Virus record (IMG/VR): IMGVR_UViG_2778261567_000021
DNA length: 6,394 bases
Source: a virus
Lineage: Duplodnaviria > Heunggongvirae > Uroviricota > Caudoviricetes
Reading direction: 5' to 3' (one strand)
Shown here: positions 1 to 6,394 of the stretch, in pieces
Numbering within the stretch: position 1 is the first letter of the stretch
How the letters are laid out: each line of letters starts with the position of its first letter
The notes under the pieces: generated by a model
Seen by the model: only the letters and a program-made list of their open reading frames with translations
Told to the model about the DNA's origin: nothing
Databases searched by the model: none
Position numbers and translations under genes: made by a program

Positions 1-300
1 GATTACGCTGTCTGCGATAACCTGCCAGCCCTGCCGCGTTTCGCCGTTCTGGCCTGTCCACTGGCTTACCTGCATGTTACCCGCCACGCTCACCAGCTCG
101 CCTTTGCGGTGTTTTGCCAGTGCGTCGGCCTGTCTGCCAAACGCCAGGACGGATAACCACATCGTCGCCGTTCCGTCATCAGCCTGGCTGCATGTCAGGG
201 GAACCGCCATACTCGCCATCGTCATTTGTGTGCCCTTGCTGGTGGTCTTTAACTGTGGGTCAGCCACCAGCCGCCCGTAAGCCGCTATCTGTGCTGTCAT
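1..300 (-). CDS. ssb: SSB-like OB-fold single-stranded DNA-binding protein (N-terminal 100 aa; continues beyond the window)
   Basis: Translated by hand from the minus strand (not in the ORF track because it runs off the edge): MTAQIAAYGRLVADPQLKTTSKGTQMTMASMAVPLTCSQADDGTATMWLSVLAFGRQADALAKHRKGELVSVAGNMQVSQWTGQNGETRQGWQVIADSVI… This is colinear with the E. coli SSB OB-fold as recalled from memory (…GNLGQDPEVR…; …[43 protein letters not shown]…). The plus-strand ORFs 74..280 and 114..302 are antisense shadows. Confidence 0.6.
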   Translation of the reverse strand, partial: MTAQIAAYGRLVADPQLKTTSKGTQMTMASMAVPLTCSQADDGTATMWLSVLAFGRQADALAKHRKGELVSVAGNMQVSQWTGQNGETRQGWQVIADSVI

Positions 301-575
301 GATTCCACCTCTACGTTTTTAACGTTGATGGTTGTCACCTGTTCAGCTTCCGCAATCTCCCGCTCTGTCAGCGTGGCAAAATTTGCCGCCGTCGTGGTCA
401 TGAATGCGCTTATCAGTTCGGGATGTGCTTTCGCGTATCCTTCCCCCGCGTGGCGGTCTATCGTTCTGATTGCCACCTTTAAAGCGTGCTCTGTCATGTC
501 TAACGCGCGATATTTCGGTTCTGTTCTGTCTCTGCGTTTTTTGAGTGATTTATTAAATTTCCCTGAAGTGTGCAT
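297..575 (-). CDS. Hypothetical protein (92 aa), ATGA-coupled to the downstream SSB-like gene
   Basis: ATG at 575 with GAGGGGG about 10 nt upstream. Its stop TGA (297-299) overlaps the ATG (298-300) of the next minus-strand ORF. Product MHTSGKFNKSLKKRRDRTEPKYRALDMTEHALKVAIRTIDRHAGEGYAKAHPELISAFMTTT… No family recognised. Confidence 0.5.
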   Translation of the reverse strand: MHTSGKFNKSLKKRRDRTEPKYRALDMTEHALKVAIRTIDRHAGEGYAKAHPELISAFMTTTAANFATLTEREIAEAEQVTTINVKNVEVES

Positions 576-623
576 ATTTATTTTTACCCCCTCGTTTAAA
601 AAGTTTTGAGTTGTGCCTCCCCT

Positions 624-849
624 TGTCTACCTTATCTACCTTAGTGGCCCTCATGCCAGTAATGGCGCGGCTTTCAGCGGGGTAGAGTGCTTTTATCCGC
701 TATCTACCCCGTGTCTACCTCCCTGTCTGATTCAGGTAAAATCAGGTAGAGAGGGTAGATAGTGGGTAGACAGTAAAAAAAGGCTATCTACCTAACTTAA
801 TGCACTGAATTAAATGTATCTTTCTTTACTCAGGTAGACAGGGTAGACA
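624..849. repeat. Iteron cluster: about 11 copies of 8-bp T(A/G)TCTACC / GGTAGA(C/T/G)A in both orientations; putative origin of replication
   Basis: Direct copies at 624-631, 633-640, 702-709, 712-719 and 785-792. Inverted copies at 681-687, 745-752, 754-761, 765-772, 833-840 and 842-849. Spacing is often 9-11 bp (one helical turn). A-rich/AT-rich stretches lie at 771-780 and 793-830. The cluster is immediately 3' of the primase/helicase gene. Confidence 0.6.
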
Positions 850-863
850 GCAATTACAAAAAA

Positions 864-2618
864 TTATAAAAACGCGTCGCACTCGTCTGTTGTTATTGCG
901 TTAGTCTGCGTTACTCCCTTAACTTTCCGCGTAATATATTCATGTCCGTAAACTTTCGCGGCTGGCTTCATAGCCTTGCCAAAGTCATTTACGTTTAGCG
1001 GTTTGCTCCTGCCTGCGTACGCCATAAACGCCAGATAGACGCGGTAAAGGCTGTTTCTGGTCGTGTACTTCACTGAATCGCCACCGCCGCCCATCATCAG
1101 GCCGCGTGCTTCCTCCAGAAAATTCAGGAACTGGCAAAACTCAATAACCGGATCCGTCTGTTGCTTTATTGCCAGAGCTTCATCACCGTCACGCTGTTCC
1201 AGTAGTAAAGCCCGTGCTTTCTCAGAGTCGGTAAAGTTCGCCAGCAATCGGCGGATAATGACAGGGATTTCAGCCGCAATCTTTTCCGGTAGCTCCCTGT
1301 CTTTTTCGGCCTCACTGACGATATTGTCGAAACGGAAAATCACGCGACGACGTGCCACACCTCCGGCCCGTTCGGTGAATATCATCGGGTTGTTGTTGGT
1401 CGCCAGCACCACCGCCCTGATTACCGCCGTAAAACGCTTTTCATATTTCGGGTTAATTTCCACGGGGTCACCGCCCGTGATTTTCTTGATGCCCGTTCCT
1501 TCGCCTGTATATTTCGGCTGGTCAGCCAGGACGATAAGGCGACTCCCGACAACCTGCGCACGTCCACCAGCATCATCAAGCGATGTCATTTCAGCGCTTA
1601 CCGTGTTCTGTTTCCCTGCCAGAAGGCTGGCTATGTGTGTGAATGTACTTTTACCGCTCCCGCCGTCTCCGGTGGCCTCAATAAACATCTGCCAGTCGTA
1701 CCGGTTCGCCATAATCATGTACAGCGCGGCACATATCCGCATCATCTTGCGCGGGTCTTTTCCGGCTGCGTGCTCAAGCCATTTATGAAAGTTTGGCGCG
1801 TTATCGCGGATGTTCTCCCCTGGTGCTGGTGGCGTGTACTCAATACCGTTGTGCGTGGTGATCCAGTTCTCCGGCGTGTGCGGGGAAAATTCCCCCGTTT
1901 TCAGGTCAAGCGCACCATTGGCAAACGGCAGCAAATCGCCGGACGGCTCGCCCATTGGTTCGGCAATAACTTTTAACGCTTCCACGGCGTTATTGATTAC
2001 GCGCTTGCTGAAAGTGGCCCTGTGCTCTGAATAGATCGCCACCATTTCGCGGCTAAGTTCCATTGTGCTGACCGGACACCATACCCCGCCGCGCCATACG
2101 TGAACGATTTCACTTTCAGGATGCACGCAAACGCCATCAAATCGTCCGGCAAGAAGTTGAGCGCGCTCACTGTCCGCCATCTGCGAAAGTTGCGCCTTTT
2201 GCTTTACAGGAAGCTCAATAACCAGCCCATCAGAAAGATTCTGGCGCTCACTGGCCAGATATTCGCGCCAGTTCTCCACCTTCTGACCGTGCATACCATC
2301 AGGGTAAAAATTTGCATCCTGTACGCCTGCCGCCGCCAGCTTCTGACCAATCGCCTTTATCATTACTGGCGCAAGATATCCGGCCCTGAATATGCGCACG
2401 GATTTTCTGCCTTCCGGCACAATTTGCAGCTTATCCAGTTCTGATAACTGCTGCTCCCCAAGCCACACAGGAGGCTCATTATCTCCGGCCATACGCGCGT
2501 CATGTTCCTGCCATTGTTTCGCGTGTGACCAGGCATCACTACCCGCAAAAATAATGACTTCTGTTTCTTTGTGTTTTATGCCGCGTGGCTGCTGTTTTAC
2601 GTTCGGTGCCAGTTTCAT
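864..2618 (-). CDS. Phage/plasmid primase-helicase, P4-alpha family (D5_N-like region + SF3-type P-loop NTPase), 584 aa
   Basis: 584-aa ORF with Walker A GDGGSGKST and a Walker B-like hhhhD motif (RLIVLADQ) in the central/C-terminal part, as in the P4-alpha / poxvirus D5 primase C-terminal NTPase family. The N-terminal about 250 aa is a candidate primase domain. It is followed immediately by an iteron cluster, consistent with a pri-rep initiator and its ori. Confidence 0.88.
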   Translation of the reverse strand: MKLAPNVKQQPRGIKHKETEVIIFAGSDAWSHAKQWQEHDARMAGDNEPPVWLGEQQLSELDKLQIVPEGRKSVRIFRAGYLAPVMIKAIGQKLAAAGVQDANFYPDGMHGQKVENWREYLASERQNLSDGLVIELPVKQKAQLSQMADSERAQLLAGRFDGVCVHPESEIVHVWRGGVWCPVSTMELSREMVAIYSEHRATFSKRVINNAVEALKVIAEPMGEPSGDLLPFANGALDLKTGEFSPHTPENWITTHNGIEYTPPAPGENIRDNAPNFHKWLEHAAGKDPRKMMRICAALYMIMANRYDWQMFIEATGDGGSGKSTFTHIASLLAGKQNTVSAEMTSLDDAGGRAQVVGSRLIVLADQPKYTGEGTGIKKITGGDPVEINPKYEKRFTAVIRAVVLATNNNPMIFTERAGGVARRRVIFRFDNIVSEAEKDRELPEKIAAEIPVIIRRLLANFTDSEKARALLLEQRDGDEALAIKQQTDPVIEFCQFLNFLEEARGLMMGGGGDSVKYTTRNSLYRVYLAFMAYAGRSKPLNVNDFGKAMKPAAKVYGHEYITRKVKGVTQTNAITTDECDAFL

Positions 2619-2914
2619 TTTTTGCCCCTGAATCCGTTAATCATGTTTTTCATCTTCTGAATATTGGCGCGTGCTTTCTCCCTGCTGGTGGGCACGTTAC
2701 GCGGTACTGCCTGCACAAGAGAAAAATCACGCCGGAACTGATAAACAGGCATCACGCAATCATATTCGTAACCTTCACGGCGGTAAGTTACGCACCGTCC
2801 CGCCACGCCCTTAATCATTACCGTGCCGCCGTACTGGTCGCGGTAAATATCACCGCGCGTAAATTTAGGGTGAGTGTTGCCACTGGCAGTTAAGCCAGAA
2901 TATTTAAATTTCAT
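2615..2914 (-). CDS. Hypothetical basic protein (99 aa), translationally coupled to the primase
   Basis: ATG at 2914 with GGAG about 11 nt upstream. Its stop TGA (2615-2617) overlaps the primase ATG (2616-2618) as ATGA. Product MKFKYSGLTASGNTHPKFTRGDIYRDQYGGTVMIKGVAGRCVTYRREGYEYDCVMPVYQFRRDF… No family recognised. Confidence 0.55.
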   Translation of the reverse strand: MKFKYSGLTASGNTHPKFTRGDIYRDQYGGTVMIKGVAGRCVTYRREGYEYDCVMPVYQFRRDFSLVQAVPRNVPTSREKARANIQKMKNMINGFRGKK

Positions 2915-2919
2915 TATTT

Positions 2920-3153
2920 TTATTCTCCGGTGTGCTGTTCGTTATATCTGTCGTGCAATTGGTCTATTTCTTGTAGTTCCATTATTACAGGCTCAAGAAG
3001 CGTTATTAATGCCGTGACAATTCTTGATTTTTGTTTGTCGCGTTCATTGTCGCCAAGTGTTTCAAGCCATATGCGCAATATTTCCATCATATTTTCACTG
3101 TGAGAAAGTGCAAGAAATACGCGATCTGTTGTTTCGTGGTAAATATCACGCAT
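2920..3153 (-). CDS. Hypothetical protein (77 aa)
   Basis: ATG at 3153 lies 1 nt after the previous stop, with a GGGG-rich sequence upstream. Acidic product MRDIYHETTDRVFLALSHSENMMEILRIWLETLGDNERDKQKSRIVTALITLLEPVIMELQEIDQLHDRYNEQHTGE. Co-oriented and tightly spaced within the operon. Confidence 0.5.
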   Translation of the reverse strand: MRDIYHETTDRVFLALSHSENMMEILRIWLETLGDNERDKQKSRIVTALITLLEPVIMELQEIDQLHDRYNEQHTGE

Positions 3154-3154
3154 A

Positions 3155-3376
3155 TTAATCCCCGTCCGTCGCTTTTCTTAAAATAACCTCTGTCACGAAA
3201 TCAGCATAGTTAGCGGCAATATCAAGAATATTTAGCCCTGTATCTCTGTGCTCATCAGTGCAAAGAAAGAAAAAAGCCACCCGCATAATTTCAGATATTG
3301 ACGAAAGCGCATCAGCCGCATCATCAGGAACGCCGGAAAATTCTTGTTTCAGGGAATTAAAACGATCATCACGCAT
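3155..3376 (-). CDS. Hypothetical protein (73 aa); possibly the C-terminal part of a protein fused with 3349..3609
   Basis: ATG at 3376 lies 2 nt after the G9 run, which could double as a G-rich SD. Product MRDDRFNSLKQEFSGVPDDAADALSSISEIMRVAFFFLCTDEHRDTGLNILDIAANYADFVTEVILRKATDGD. Its stop TAA (3155-3157) is 1 nt from the next start. Confidence 0.5.
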   Translation of the reverse strand: MRDDRFNSLKQEFSGVPDDAADALSSISEIMRVAFFFLCTDEHRDTGLNILDIAANYADFVTEVILRKATDGD

Positions 3377-3609
3377 AACCCCCCCCCATTTTCACAATCA
3401 GCAATCAGGATAGCTTTGGCCTCATTCAGCGCCATATCAGCACTAAGTTGCATAACCGCCAGCGAATGAGGAACGAAAGCCCCTGCATATTCTGTTTCAC
3501 TGGTGGCGTGCTTATGCGCCCTGTCAGCAATAACAGAAATATCAATAAGCGCGTGCATCAGCGTAGTGAGCGCGGCGGCTGCTGCGTCCGGTGTGGTTTT
3601 ATTGCACAT
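3349..3609 (-). CDS. Hypothetical protein (86 aa); possibly the N-terminal part of a longer protein split at a homopolymer
   Basis: ATG at 3609 with a strong SD (AGGAGG 6 nt upstream, lying inside the preceding ORF). The C-terminus (…ENGGGLCVMIVLIP) is encoded across the G9 run and overlaps the next ORF by 28 nt in another frame. Confidence 0.5.
   Translation of the reverse strand: MCNKTTPDAAAAALTTLMHALIDISVIADRAHKHATSETEYAGAFVPHSLAVMQLSADMALNEAKAILIADCENGGGLCVMIVLIP
3379..3387. repeat. Homopolymeric tract C9 (G9 on the coding strand) at the junction of two ORFs
   Basis: Nine consecutive C at 3379-3387. The minus-strand ORFs 3349..3609 and 3155..3376 differ by one frame across this tract. 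Confidence 0.9.
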
Positions 3610-3805
3610 GGCACACCTCCTGACGAATACGGGCGGCGAATACCATCACGCAGCCAGCCGGGGATTGCAGGCGTGCTTCCTGTTCGCTGGCGGCCTCAAT
3701 GGTAATCACGCGCGGTTGTGCCGTGCTCAGGGCGATAAAACGCCAGATGTATTTATTCAGGTTGTGCGAGTCCCGCCCTTGCGGGTGTGTGGTATGATTT
3801 AACAT
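3599..3805 (-). CDS. Hypothetical protein (68 aa), first gene of the minus-strand operon
   Basis: The ORF track shows a 305-aa ORF 3599..4516, but only the 3' part is credible. The internal ATG at 3805 is preceded by GAGGT 5 nt upstream (minus strand CGAGGTAGCT-ATG). Product MLNHTTHPQGRDSHNLNKYIWRFIALSTAQPRVITIEAASEQEARLQSPAGCVMVFAARIRQEVCHVQ. Its stop overlaps the start of the next ORF by 11 nt. Confidence 0.5.
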   Translation of the reverse strand: MLNHTTHPQGRDSHNLNKYIWRFIALSTAQPRVITIEAASEQEARLQSPAGCVMVFAARIRQEVCHVQ

Positions 3806-3901
3806 AGCTACCTCGATACGCTTTCTATCGTTGGTGGTTAGAAGCCCGGTTAGTGTTAGCGCACTGCCGGGTTTCGTCGTTTCTGCACCTTGCATCAACA
3901 A

Positions 3902-3955
3902 GGTGTTGAACACCAATTTAAGCCCTGGTGTTAAACACGTCAAGTGTTGAACACT
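3902..3955. promoter_or_regulatory. Three palindromic operator-like sites GTGTT-N-AACAC in a divergent promoter region
   Basis: GGTGTTGAACACC (3902-3914, 13-bp palindrome), GTGTTAAACAC (3928-3938) and AGTGTTGAACACT (3943-3955, 13-bp palindrome). An extra AGTGTT half-site lies near 3851-3856. They sit between divergently oriented genes (minus-strand ORF starting at 3805, plus-strand RHH ORF starting at 4005). Confidence 0.55.
3916..3943 (-). promoter_or_regulatory. Candidate sigma70 promoter for the minus-strand replication operon
   Basis: On the minus strand: TTGACG (3943..3938), 16-nt spacer containing operator 2, TTAAAT (3921..3916). It lies back-to-back with the plus-strand promoter. Assigned by eye only. 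Confidence 0.3.
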
Positions 3956-3975
3956 TATTTTTTTTCCTGCATACT
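3947..3975 (+). promoter_or_regulatory. Candidate sigma70 promoter for the RHH cassette
   Basis: TTGAAC (3947-3952), 17-nt spacer, CATACT (3970-3975). The -35 element lies inside operator 3. Assigned by eye only. Confidence 0.3.
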
Positions 3976-4004
3976 GCATTTGTTTTTTGTAAGGGGTACA
4001 CAAC

Positions 4005-4184
4005 ATGGCGACAAAAGCAGTAAACGCAAAATCACAAACAGTTGCGGCAAGGGTTCCGCATGAAGTTATGAACAATGTTGAGGCGGTAAAAATGCCTGGT
4101 GAAAGTACAGGGCAGTTTGTAACAGCAGCATTAAAGCGAGAAGTTGAATACCGCCAGCGTCGCAAGGCCAAAGAGCAGGAATAA
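4005..4184 (+). CDS. Small ribbon-helix-helix (CopG/Arc/MetJ-like) DNA-binding protein, 59 aa
   Basis: Absent from the ORF track, presumably for being under the length cut-off. ATG at 4005 is preceded by AAGGGG at 3991-3996 (8-nt spacing); stop TAA at 4182-4184. Product MATKAVNAKSQTVAARVPHEVMNNVEAVKMPGESTGQFVTAALKREVEYRQRRKAKEQE shows the RHH signature: a beta-strand (AARVPHEV), helix, G-x-S/T turn (GESTGQF), and second helix (VTAALKREV). It lies immediately downstream of the palindromic operators. Confidence 0.55.
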   Translation: MATKAVNAKSQTVAARVPHEVMNNVEAVKMPGESTGQFVTAALKREVEYRQRRKAKEQE

Positions 4185-4241
4185 CCATCACCAGCGCCGT
4201 GGTGTAAGGTATTACGGCGCATTGCTATGCAGGACAACACA

Positions 4242-4415
4242 ATGACCGATAAAGAATTGACCAAAACATTATCACCGGCACGGAAAAGACGGCGCAGAAA
4301 GATAGAGCATGAATCAGAAAGATTCGCGCCATGTGCTTTTGCCCTTGAGCAATTCCTTAAAGAGTACAGGGAAACGCGCCCATTGCAGGTATGGCAACGA
4401 ACTGAACCAGACTGA
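4242..4415 (+). CDS. Hypothetical small basic protein (57 aa; KRRRRK motif)
   Basis: ORF track gives 4227..4415. The second in-frame ATG at 4242 is preferred because AGGA at 4230-4233 lies 8 nt upstream. Product MTDKELTKTLSPARKRRRRKIEHESERFAPCAFALEQFLKEYRETRPLQVWQRTEPD. It follows the RHH ORF on the same strand and is closed by the terminator at 4480-4508. No family recognised. Confidence 0.4.
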   Translation: MTDKELTKTLSPARKRRRRKIEHESERFAPCAFALEQFLKEYRETRPLQVWQRTEPD

Positions 4416-4479
4416 TTGCATTGCCCACCAGCCTGATAGCGGCTATCATCCCCGTGCTTATGTTTAGTGTTTTCCCATT

Positions 4480-4508
4480 GGCGACCGCCCCCGGTCGCCT
4501 TTGTTTTA
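4480..4508 (+). terminator. Rho-independent terminator of the plus-strand small-ORF cassette
   Basis: Perfect 8-bp GC-rich stem GGCGACCG (4480-4487) / CGGTCGCC (4492-4499) with a 4-nt loop CCCC, followed by TTTGTTTTA on the plus strand. On the minus strand the hairpin is followed by AAUGGGAAA, so it is mainly unidirectional. Confidence 0.65.
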
Positions 4509-4526
4509 TGTGTCATATGCTCCCCT

Positions 4527-4736
4527 TTACACTGCCTTACCTGAATTAATGCGATCCCGGCTTTTAACCCATTCCATAACCTCGGACAGCAGCCACCCTA
4601 CAGAACGACCGCCCAGATTAAGACGTGACGGAAAGCTCCCTTTTTTCTCCAGTTCGTAGCGTGTAGTGCGACACACTCCAGTTAACTTACGACATTCATC
4701 CTCACGGATTACGCGATCTTCATTTATTTCACGCAT
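4527..4736 (-). CDS. alpA: AlpA-family (Vis/Xis-like) transcriptional regulator / excisionase-type HTH protein, 69 aa
   Basis: The 69-aa product MREINEDRVIREDECRKLTGVCRTTRYELEKKGSFPSRLNLGGRSVGWLLSEVMEWVKSRDRINSGKAV matches the AlpA pattern (…TG.sR.T.Y…P….lG.rsVGW…E…W, about 70 aa). The ORF track extends it to 4823 with a GTG start (98 aa), but the extension is AT-rich and AlpA proteins are about 70 aa, so the ATG at 4736 is preferred. It sits directly downstream of int in the same orientation. Confidence 0.75.
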   Translation of the reverse strand: MREINEDRVIREDECRKLTGVCRTTRYELEKKGSFPSRLNLGGRSVGWLLSEVMEWVKSRDRINSGKAV

Positions 4737-5155
4737 ACAAAAACCTACATAAAAATTACGTATATAAACTTTTCTCTTAGCTGTAGATATATGAGATCGG
4801 ATATTACTTAGATTCTTTTTCACCTCTTAAATTAAAAACACAACCATGCTAAAGGCTTTGTTCGCTAAGGTTCGTAGAAGCTCGTTAGTGTTTAAAATCG
4901 TGTCACGAGTTTTTAAGCGACGCAACAAAAAATGTCGTCATTTGGCATGACACCTTAATTACCTCATTAAAAACAAATAGATAAACTATCAGGTGTTGGA
5001 ACAATCAAGAAACAGAGAATAAGAACTCAGAAGAAGACATTTCAATTTTTTTCGATAGTTGACACATATAAAGAGAAGATATTTGCAGATATTCCCCGAT
5101 ATTCTAAGATCTATTCACGGCTGTAATCTCTTAAAGAAAAAACAGCCGTAATTTG

Positions 5156-6394
5156 TCAAGAATTTTGGGGGTAAATTCGCGGGGTCATAACAACGATTTT
5201 TTCATCATTGTTCTGGAGAAGCTCGAGACGGTCTACCCATAGATTAAGAGCATCACGTTTTGCATCAAGGTAGCGGGAGTGGTTATAGACTCGTTGCATC
5301 CCTGGCATCTGGTGGGCTGTAAGCTGCTCGACAATATGCGGATCCACGCCTAAATCGTTCAGCATGGTTGTAAATGTGTGCCGGATATCGTGTAACGTCC
5401 AGGGGGCTTGATTAATTCGTCTGTGCGCTGTTCTTCCGTACTCTGCTACCGAAGATTGTCCTTTCAGTTCACCAAGCAATAAGCCTGAGTGTCTGTTCTG
5501 CTCCACCAGTTGCGTGACGAACGGCAAAATGCTTTCCGGTATTGGCCTGAATATGGCGACCTTCGTTTTGCTGTGCTCCTTCGGTACTGTCCAGAGCATT
5601 TCTTTAAAATCCCACTCCTGCACCTCAGAGCGCCTTAGCTCAGTGGTACGGCATCCAAAAACAATCAGGAGGCGAATTAGGGCGCTGTAGTATGGCGGGA
5701 ATATTTTGTCATCCAGGGCGCGGAGTAATTCCCCAAGCTCCTTATTTGTTAGTACGCGCTCGCTCACTTCTGCTTTTTTTCCCACATCACCGACAACCAT
5801 ATCATCAAGAACGTTGCTGATTGCGTATCGTCGTTTTCGGCAGTACTTAAGCGCCTGTTTGCATACCTGTAGCAAAAATCCGGCAGATACAGGGCTTCGC
5901 TTTGCCATCTGGTCAAAACATGCCAACCAGTGCCGTAGCTCGCATTTTTCCAACGGCAAAGCGCCAATCTGGCTGATTATGTGTTTATTGATCCGGCTTT
6001 TCAGTGATTCGTAGTCAGTGCGCTTTTCCTTTGCATACGATTCAAGCCAGTAAGTGAGCGCTTCCTTAACTGTCACGGGGGCTAACGCATCCTGTACAGC
6101 ACGATTAAGCTCATAGCGCGGATTTTTCCCCTCAGCCAGCCAGGCGCGACACTGTGCTGCTTTTTCCCTGGCTGCTTTCAGGCTCAGATCGGGATAATTG
6201 CCCAGTCTCAGACGTTCCGGTGATACCTGCCTACCAGTTCCGGCCCTGTAAGTGAAATACCAGGTTAACAGGCCGCTGGTGGAATGTCTTACGCTAAGAT
6301 TGCCACCGTCATTAAAAAAGGCGTTTTTTGTGGTTGGTGATCCGCTTAATTTTCGTAAAAGAGTGTCGCTAAGTCTATGAATTGCGCTGCTCAT
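5156..6394 (-). CDS. int: Tyrosine site-specific integrase, P4 family (412 aa)
   Basis: ORF of 412 aa. The C-terminal catalytic region carries the HxxR box (HDIRHTF) and the tyrosine nucleophile motif (RVYNHSRY). The N-terminal region (GNLSVRHSTSGLLTWYFTYR...) resembles the arm-binding domain of P4/CP4-57-type integrases, recalled from memory. The ATG sits exactly at the window edge, so an upstream extension cannot be excluded. Confidence 0.93.
   Translation of the reverse strand: MSSAIHRLSDTLLRKLSGSPTTKNAFFNDGGNLSVRHSTSGLLTWYFTYRAGTGRQVSPERLRLGNYPDLSLKAAREKAAQCRAWLAEGKNPRYELNRAVQDALAPVTVKEALTYWLESYAKEKRTDYESLKSRINKHIISQIGALPLEKCELRHWLACFDQMAKRSPVSAGFLLQVCKQALKYCRKRRYAISNVLDDMVVGDVGKKAEVSERVLTNKELGELLRALDDKIFPPYYSALIRLLIVFGCRTTELRRSEVQEWDFKEMLWTVPKEHSKTKVAIFRPIPESILPFVTQLVEQNRHSGLLLGELKGQSSVAEYGRTAHRRINQAPWTLHDIRHTFTTMLNDLGVDPHIVEQLTAHQMPGMQRVYNHSRYLDAKRDALNLWVDRLELLQNNDEKIVVMTPRIYPQNS

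Follow-up and report, generated by a model that had tools for sequence, protein, structure and literature searches.

The described elements closest to the system considered here are satellites and other mobile elements that replicate inside a bacterial host. The satellite P4 carries the Sid, Psu, and Delta genes and, to our knowledge, its gene set holds no single-stranded DNA-binding protein (SSB). F-type conjugative plasmids and phage P1 do encode SSBs, of about 175-180 aa, that are close relatives of the host protein. The phage-inducible chromosomal islands (PICIs) of E. coli have been argued to be a lineage separate from P4 (Fillol-Salom et al. 2018, PMC6092414). Their origins lie immediately 3' of the replication gene and consist of two sets of iterons with an AT-rich region between them, and the pri-ori segment is a working replicon (PMC6092414). 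An SSB is listed together with Primase and DUF5906 in the Replication zone of Gram-negative PICIs (Mageeney et al. 2023, PMC10111431). Here we analyze the left end of a 6,394-nt stretch of viral DNA (IMG/VR record IMGVR_UViG_2778261567_000021, Caudoviricetes; the whole stretch is called the window below), where an open reading frame (ORF) running off the edge is preceded by a 92-aa ORF and a repeat-rich intergenic region.

The edge ORF is a genuine bacterial-type SSB of 140 aa. We consider it likely that this protein is an accessory for the replication burst of the satellite, recruiting host proteins via its C-terminal IPF tip. Judged by gene order and sequence, the element is assigned to the Gram-negative PICIs of the EcCICFT073 type and not to P4-like satellites; in these islands SSB is a routine, annotated, and published component, and as such it is already known. 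The features of the window are collected in Table 1.

Identity of the edge gene

The SSB frame begins with the ATG at 300-298 on the minus strand and stays open for 100 codons up to position 1 of the window. This 100-aa fragment matches the Pfam SSB family PF00436 (E 6.8e-17; 61.9 bits, cutoff 26) and the TIGR00621 model (54.8 bits, cutoff 53.95), a family score far beyond chance. For the full protein, the PF00436 match has E 1.4e-16 and the TIGR00621 score rises to 63 bits; the cutoff of this general subfamily is the only one passed, and no equivalog model reaches its own. Over positions 1-900, the window is matched at 100% identity by three complete E. coli genomes, and in them the frame runs on uninterrupted for 40 more codons to a stop. 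In one of these relatives, the island L001 (NZ_CP075632.1), the full-length gene occupies L001 13878-14300, is annotated in RefSeq as a single-stranded DNA-binding protein (WP_000126664.1), and continues at its C-terminus as ...SARTARPGGKKGQQGQATDALNRAKQQAGNDDPYGDNIPF, followed by the stop codon.

The family profile of the satellite SSB matches 25 solved SSB structures, the best being 1z9f (E 2.4e-11). The AlphaFold (AF2) model has a five-strand oligonucleotide/oligosaccharide-binding (OB) barrel formed by residues 1-101, with a helix at 55-62 and a predicted local distance difference test score (pLDDT) of 80-92 over most of the core. When this model was compared with solved structures by Foldseek, the 50 best PDB matches listed were all SSBs, bacterial except for one mitochondrial protein, with SsbA, SsbB, and SSB proteins at the top (E about 1e-8). 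Thus the OB fold, which the original prediction had proposed from the truncated frame, is borne out by the hidden Markov model (HMM) matches to PF00436 and TIGR00621, both above cutoff, by the modeled barrel, and by the structural matches. The parts that it had proposed to look for to the left of the window were also found: the frame is open to its natural stop in the three relatives, and the full protein has a short Gly/Gln-rich linker and an acidic ...DDPYGDNIPF tip.

The ratio of nonsynonymous to synonymous substitution rates (dN/dS) is 0.11-0.34 for the SSB gene, mostly about 0.15, and 0.21-0.33 for the 92-aa ORF. The SSB evolves under purifying selection and, because of these ratios, both genes are regarded as working genes. 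A pseudogene or a chance ORF is ruled out by the HMM scores, the dN/dS values, and the conservation.

The satellite protein is 28% identical to the chromosomal SSB of E. coli. Both proteins have an OB fold and a disordered linker, and both end in an acidic IPF tip. The invariant residues W48, F54, and W81 of the satellite protein align with W54, F60, and W88 of the E. coli protein, so that three of the four aromatic residues stacking on single-stranded DNA (ssDNA) are kept, whereas an equivalent of W40 is absent. The loop around residues 40-50 is shorter than in the host protein, and the linker (residues about 102-130, Gly/Gln/Lys-rich, with low pLDDT) has about 30 residues versus about 60. 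Linker length varies among the homologues, which have 136-149 aa. The tip lies outside the window itself; in the relatives identical over positions 1-900 it reads ...NDDPYGDNIPF and thus ends in IPF, like the DDDIPF of the host SSB. D136, I138, P139, and F140 (D-x-IPF) are invariant in 12 diverse family members, and 70 of the 73 complete SSB copies from viral contigs end in IPF. In other genera the tips vary, for instance DDIPF, DDETPF, DDEAPF, or YDDDF, and nearly all are acidic with a terminal Phe.

The closest known counterpart is the SSB of EcCICFT073 (WP_000126698.1, C_RS06995, E. coli CFT073). It likewise follows a primase gene and an iteron origin, is ATGA-coupled to a homologous small ORF, and has 73% identity (71% by tblastn) to the satellite SSB, and the two proteins agree in their OB core and in the ...DDPYGD-x-IPF tip; it differs in length, 136 versus 140 aa, and in a segment of the linker. 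As in the case of the F-plasmid and P1 proteins, a mobile element supplies an SSB itself; its tip is compatible with the host, and its presumed purpose is to serve a burst of ssDNA. Unlike them, the satellite SSBs form a distinct clade of short, satellite-linked proteins, with almost no members in plasmids or cultured phages.

Replication module and proposed role of the SSB

The motif GGTAGANAG occurs seven times in positions 700-850, where 0.12 occurrences are expected, and none of 200 shuffled sequences reached seven. With degenerate copies included, the repeats extend over 619-853 as two inverted sets, and between positions 760 and 840 lies an AT-rich stretch with 30-35% GC. The whole non-coding stretch is the predicted replication origin of the island, and its layout matches the published description of E. 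coli PICI origins (PMC6092414). Because of these iteron repeats, the 92-aa ORF and the SSB gene can be placed downstream of the origin, in agreement with the original prediction, which had also described them as coupled by an ATGA overlap; the shared ATGA is indeed found at 300-297.

The primase encoded directly upstream of the origin reaches the TIGR01613 model of the P4-family primase C-terminal domain (109 bits, cutoff 108.7), and no Zn-ribbon or Toprim primase domain was detected in it by the domain scan. Its first 150 residues or so have no Pfam match.

The SSB gene is present in 1,821 of 5,426 complete E. coli genomes, in up to six copies per genome. The places where the family occurs in E. 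coli are 2,369 chromosomal versus 3 plasmid ones, and matches were found in 32 of 72,556 plasmid records, one of them a record of 4.9 Mb. Among 50,697 phage records, no relative above 31% identity was found. A scan across genera with one genome per species yielded 40 loci, mostly from Enterobacterales, with a few distant or mislabelled ones, and the SSB start is intact in 38 of them. In 23 of these 38 loci, the SSB gene starts 169-388 nt after an ORF of replicase size (410-950 aa), a spacing about large enough for an origin, and this arrangement is usual with each of the three replicase types described next. Five replicases encoded beside SSB homologues were scanned and fell into three architectures: D5_N-DUF5906; Zn-ribbon-Toprim-D5_N-DUF5906; and DUF927 with or without Zn-ribbon-Toprim. 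Unlike the window primase, then, some replicases of other genera do have the Zn-ribbon and Toprim domains. Outside the E. coli/Shigella lineage the small ORF does not occur; in other genera its slot holds unrelated ORFs, some of them ATGA-coupled, or nothing. The conserved unit is the replicase, the origin, and the SSB, and the slot before the SSB is variable.

In the consensus scan of positions 1-1000, minus strand, no promoter- or terminator-like site was found. Ten nucleotides after the SSB stop, there is a strong hairpin followed by a U-run (-19.8 kcal/mol, z -2.8); the consensus terminator scan did not list it, and it was checked by folding. Since no such signal separates the primase gene from the SSB gene and a hairpin follows the SSB stop, we propose that induction of the island by a helper phage would yield one transcript covering the primase gene, the origin, the 92-aa ORF, and the SSB gene, and ending at the hairpin terminator. 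The primase/helicase would open the AT-rich origin, the satellite SSB would coat the exposed single strands, and its host-like IPF tip would recruit those host replication proteins that dock on the host SSB. The replication burst of the satellite could then be independent of the host SSB pool, on which the helper phage also draws. The 92-aa protein would be translated from the same message.

Several points weigh against this role. The cloned replication region of EcCICFT073, that is, the rep gene and the origin, is enough to maintain a plasmid, and the SSB was apparently outside this clone, as far as the text shows (PMC6092414). Because this clone suffices for plasmid maintenance, the satellite SSB is probably a booster, at most an enhancer, and not an essential part of the replicon. 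The SSB is absent from five of 80 related viral-contig loci. Further, the equivalents of W40 and of the tetramer-interface residue His55 of E. coli SSB are not conserved, the His55 position being occupied by Leu, and the oligomeric state and the binding mode of the satellite protein could differ from those of the host SSB. For residues 101-140, including the tip, the sequence is that of the relatives identical over positions 1-900 rather than that of the window's own source. That the SSB gene and the primase gene are co-transcribed is deduced only from the absence of consensus signals. Finally, our search of the literature on PICI SSBs returned no functional work, only the gene-content listing in PMC10111431.

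The 92-aa protein and alternative readings of the SSB

The N-terminus of the 92-aa protein is basic and variable, and its core (residues about 24-89) is helical and conserved. In Pfam and NCBIfam, it gave only sub-threshold noise (ATP-synt_D, Transposase_mut), and its AF2 model is helical and poor, with a pLDDT of 58 and a predicted template modeling score (pTM) of 0.26. Its homologues form 166 clusters, nearly all from E. coli or Shigella. A profile search of 1.84 billion representatives retrieved 656 relatives at E ≤ 0.001, and the small relatives share the motif ID-x3-(F/L)GEGYA-x2-HPELI-x-AFM-x-TAA. All nine distant members that were tested are, like the window protein, assigned to phrog_1231; the cultured-phage records contributed a single match, to a distant member of the family.

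In 73 distant viral loci, the neighbours of phrog_1231 members are replication genes. Upstream, replicases of several kinds are found; three non-redundant loci have a PF00436 SSB there, and one has an Enc34-type ssDNA-binding protein. Downstream, the neighbours are DNA polymerase A (4), antiterminator Q (4), and SSB (1). On this evidence, the 92-aa protein is placed in a wide, unnamed family of phage replication modules, and our best guess is that it is a small accessory of the replication module.

Among the 80 related viral-contig loci, the ATGA overlap between the 92-aa ORF and the SSB gene is kept in 65, and it is also present in EcCICFT073 and in the island of E. coli IHE3034. The order primase, 92-aa ORF, SSB, with DUF4222 in front of the primase in some cases, precedes differing late modules in 71 of the 80. 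In nine loci, 311-320 nt are inserted between the two genes. In a Shigella flexneri locus (L044 7686-7991), the insertion at this place is a 101-aa ORF that belongs to no Pfam family; the SSB match in this locus is limited to residues 1-24, and the frame stops after 53 codons. In a Pluralibacter locus (L006), a 105-aa ORF with no Pfam match is ATGA-coupled ahead of the SSB gene.

The conserved overlap might mean that the SSB works together with the 92-aa protein as a two-protein unit, in which the small protein acts as a partner of the SSB, for instance by loading or modulating it or by serving as an adaptor to the primase/helicase. In support of such a unit, a PF00436 SSB is the immediate neighbour of distant members of the small-protein family in the four non-redundant loci counted above; where it lies upstream, the two genes touch or overlap, by a shared stop/start base or by four nucleotides, and the unrelated Enc34-type protein takes the same place in one more locus. 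However, about 50 of the 55 non-redundant distant loci have no ssDNA-binding neighbour, the SSB homologues of other genera do without the small protein, and the insertions in nine close loci separate the two genes. Overlaps of 4 nt are frequent in compact operons, and one by itself is no proof of a protein-protein link. We therefore regard the two-protein unit as unlikely. The same holds for a broader possibility, to which we give equally little credence: that phrog_1231 is a widespread unnamed partner of ssDNA-binding proteins in the replication modules of phages and satellites, standing beside two unrelated kinds of them, in either order and often overlapping. If it were true, the satellite SSB and the 92-aa protein would be a functional pair and not two unrelated genes.

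The SSB could also be mainly a weapon or a shield, competing with the host SSB for its partners, interfering with the helper, or masking ssDNA from defences that sense ssDNA or SSB, or acting as their decoy. PICIs are known to interfere with their helpers (PMC6092414), the tip is the most strictly conserved part of the protein outside the OB core, and the OB domain is only 28% identical to the host SSB and at most 31% identical to any SSB of the 50,697 phage records. However, a conserved tip is equally expected of a replication SSB, and in different genera, and beside different types of replicase, the gene stays with the replicase and the origin and does not follow the variable late and accessory zones, where the known interference genes reside. 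PADLOC, run on the SSB, the 92-aa ORF, and three neighbouring small ORFs against 5,027 defence-system models, gave no match. We consider this reading improbable, and the suggestion in the original prediction of a counter-defence or recombination use found no backing in the PADLOC search or in the island annotation, which lists no recombinase. A role in recombination was judged unlikely on the same ground, no recombinase being annotated in the three full islands examined.

Type of the island and its other modules

The replication accessory proposed above belongs to an island with the layout int, alpA, DUF4222, primase, iteron origin, and then late genes. All relevant genes of the window are on the minus strand, with int, alpA, and the primase gene in one direction, and the left end of the window corresponds to the last two genes of the PICI early (replication) operon. 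The full relative L001 is about 10 kb long, in keeping with the size of about 10-20 kb given for PICIs of this type (Fillol-Salom et al. 2018), and is situated between yejO and tRNA-Pro. After the SSB gene it contains the terminator, a small ORF, a gene encoding a prohead protease fused to a major capsid protein, and a last small ORF. The core order int, alpA, DUF4222, primase, origin, small ORF, SSB is common to the IHE3034 island and EcCICFT073. In addition to the SSB, the identity of the encoded proteins to those of EcCICFT073 is 99% for the primase, 82% for DUF4222, 77% for the integrase, and 75% (70% by tblastn) for the small ORF.

Table 1. Features of the 6,394-nt window and their support
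Feature	Position	Strand	Basis
SSB gene, last 40 codons (linker and DNIPF tip), stop, and terminator	left of window position 1		known from relatives
SSB gene, first 100 of 140 codons (OB-fold DNA-binding domain)	1..300	minus	translation and Pfam/TIGR matches
ATGA overlap of the 92-aa ORF stop (TGA 299-297) with the SSB start	297..300	minus	read from sequence
92-aa ORF, phrog_1231 member	297..575	minus	ORF list; phrog_1231 E 4e-49
Shine-Dalgarno-like GAGGTGG, 4 nt before the SSB ATG, within the end of the 92-aa ORF	305..311	minus	read from sequence
Predicted replication origin, GGTAGAYAG-type iterons in two inverted sets enclosing an AT-rich stretch	619..853		repeat families D1-D6, inverted pairs
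Primase/helicase (Pri-Rep), 584 aa, directly upstream of the origin	864..2618	minus	D5_N, DUF5906, Pox_D5
DUF4222 protein	2615-2914	minus	Pfam
AlpA-family regulator (alpA)	4527-4823	minus	Pfam E 4e-16
Integrase (int)	5156-6394	minus	ORF list, family matches

Like P4, the element is a satellite that bears an integrase, and in both an origin follows the gene of a primase/helicase from one broad family. The Sid, Psu, and Delta genes of P4 are not annotated in the full relative of the window's island; more generally, no sid, psu, or delta (epsilon) gene is annotated in the full relative islands, where no search with dedicated Sid, Psu, or Delta models was made. Although the primase just reaches the P4-family model and replicases of the P4-alpha-like Zn-ribbon-Toprim-D5_N kind are encoded at some homologous loci, it is highly improbable that the island is a P4-like satellite or a replicon derived from a phage-plasmid, with the SSB as the mark of a non-PICI origin, in view of the match in layout and sequences to the prototype PICI EcCICFT073, the lack of annotated Sid, Psu, and Delta type genes, the helper-type cos-like element and phage capsid genes that follow the SSB as in PICIs, and the near absence of the family from plasmids.

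The original prediction had taken the SSB as a sign of a replication module closer to phage-plasmids or other island types. We agree, from general knowledge of P4, that an SSB is outside its canonical gene set. A P4-type island with an unexpected extra SSB is nevertheless not what the window holds, given the PICI layout, the same small-ORF/SSB pair in EcCICFT073, and the place of SSB in the published Replication zone (PMC10111431); an origin from phage-plasmids is contradicted by the chromosomal and plasmid counts given above. Since the island is a standard PICI with SSB as a routine component, the SSB is not out of place there.

Beyond the window, the relative L001 has a cos-like element and phage late genes next to the SSB gene. 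An element of about 110 nt follows the SSB terminator (L001 13740-13850), beginning about 150 nt to the left of window position 1; the protease-capsid gene comes after it, and a second copy lies after the capsid gene (L001 11215-11326). In the lambdoid Stx phages CP-1639 and 1720a-02, the intergenic region that separates Rz from the terminase genes matches the element at 90% identity. The element contains ACGGGGCGGGTCGGCGCGG, which we take to resemble the cosN region of lambda. It is probably the cos packaging site of the satellite, present in two copies in the L001 island.

The late modules differ among similar islands. In L001 the module comprises a fusion of a ClpP-like protease with an HK97-type capsid protein (L001 11331-13220), whereas other islands have a lambda E-like capsid gene and a D-like decoration gene, with or without a small terminase gene (L002 5201-6256, L004 11669-12724). 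Lambda-type capsid and decoration genes also follow the SSB gene in the IHE3034 island and EcCICFT073; in the latter, a PerC gene and the lambda E/D-type capsid module come after it, in contrast to the protease-capsid fusion in the closest full relative of the window. These differences suggest adaptation to different helper phages.

The window itself is a mosaic. It matches the tRNA-Pro island of NZ_CP075632.1 with 99.6% identity over positions 1-3643 and no farther; the integrase and AlpA are 100% and 98% identical, respectively, to those of the IHE3034 island at the cspD/clpS site. Replication and integration/regulation modules are evidently exchanged between PICIs.

Among the small ORFs of the window, Pfam detected no family beyond DUF4222 and AlpA. 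The 305-aa ORF at 3599-4516 (minus strand) is rich in Cys, Ser, Thr, and Arg and looks spurious; in the relatives the annotation is limited to about the last 66 codons, which are called an Icd-like cell-division inhibitor. The relatives also have a YlcI/YnfO-family gene annotated on the opposite strand, where the window has its 4005-4184 ORF. An Rfam scan of the whole window gave no RNA family at the gathering score, and no P4 CI-type RNA at 3599-4516.

As a discovery, the SSB has little value: RefSeq annotates it, a third of the complete E. coli genomes have it, the Gram-negative PICI that has been studied best carries it, and the literature counts it among the replication genes of these satellites. 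A minor point worth keeping is that the 92-aa ORF belongs, by its profile matches, to a large unnamed family of phage replication modules. Also worth keeping is that a 10-kb satellite, though it borrows almost everything else, carries its own SSB, with a tip compatible with the host.

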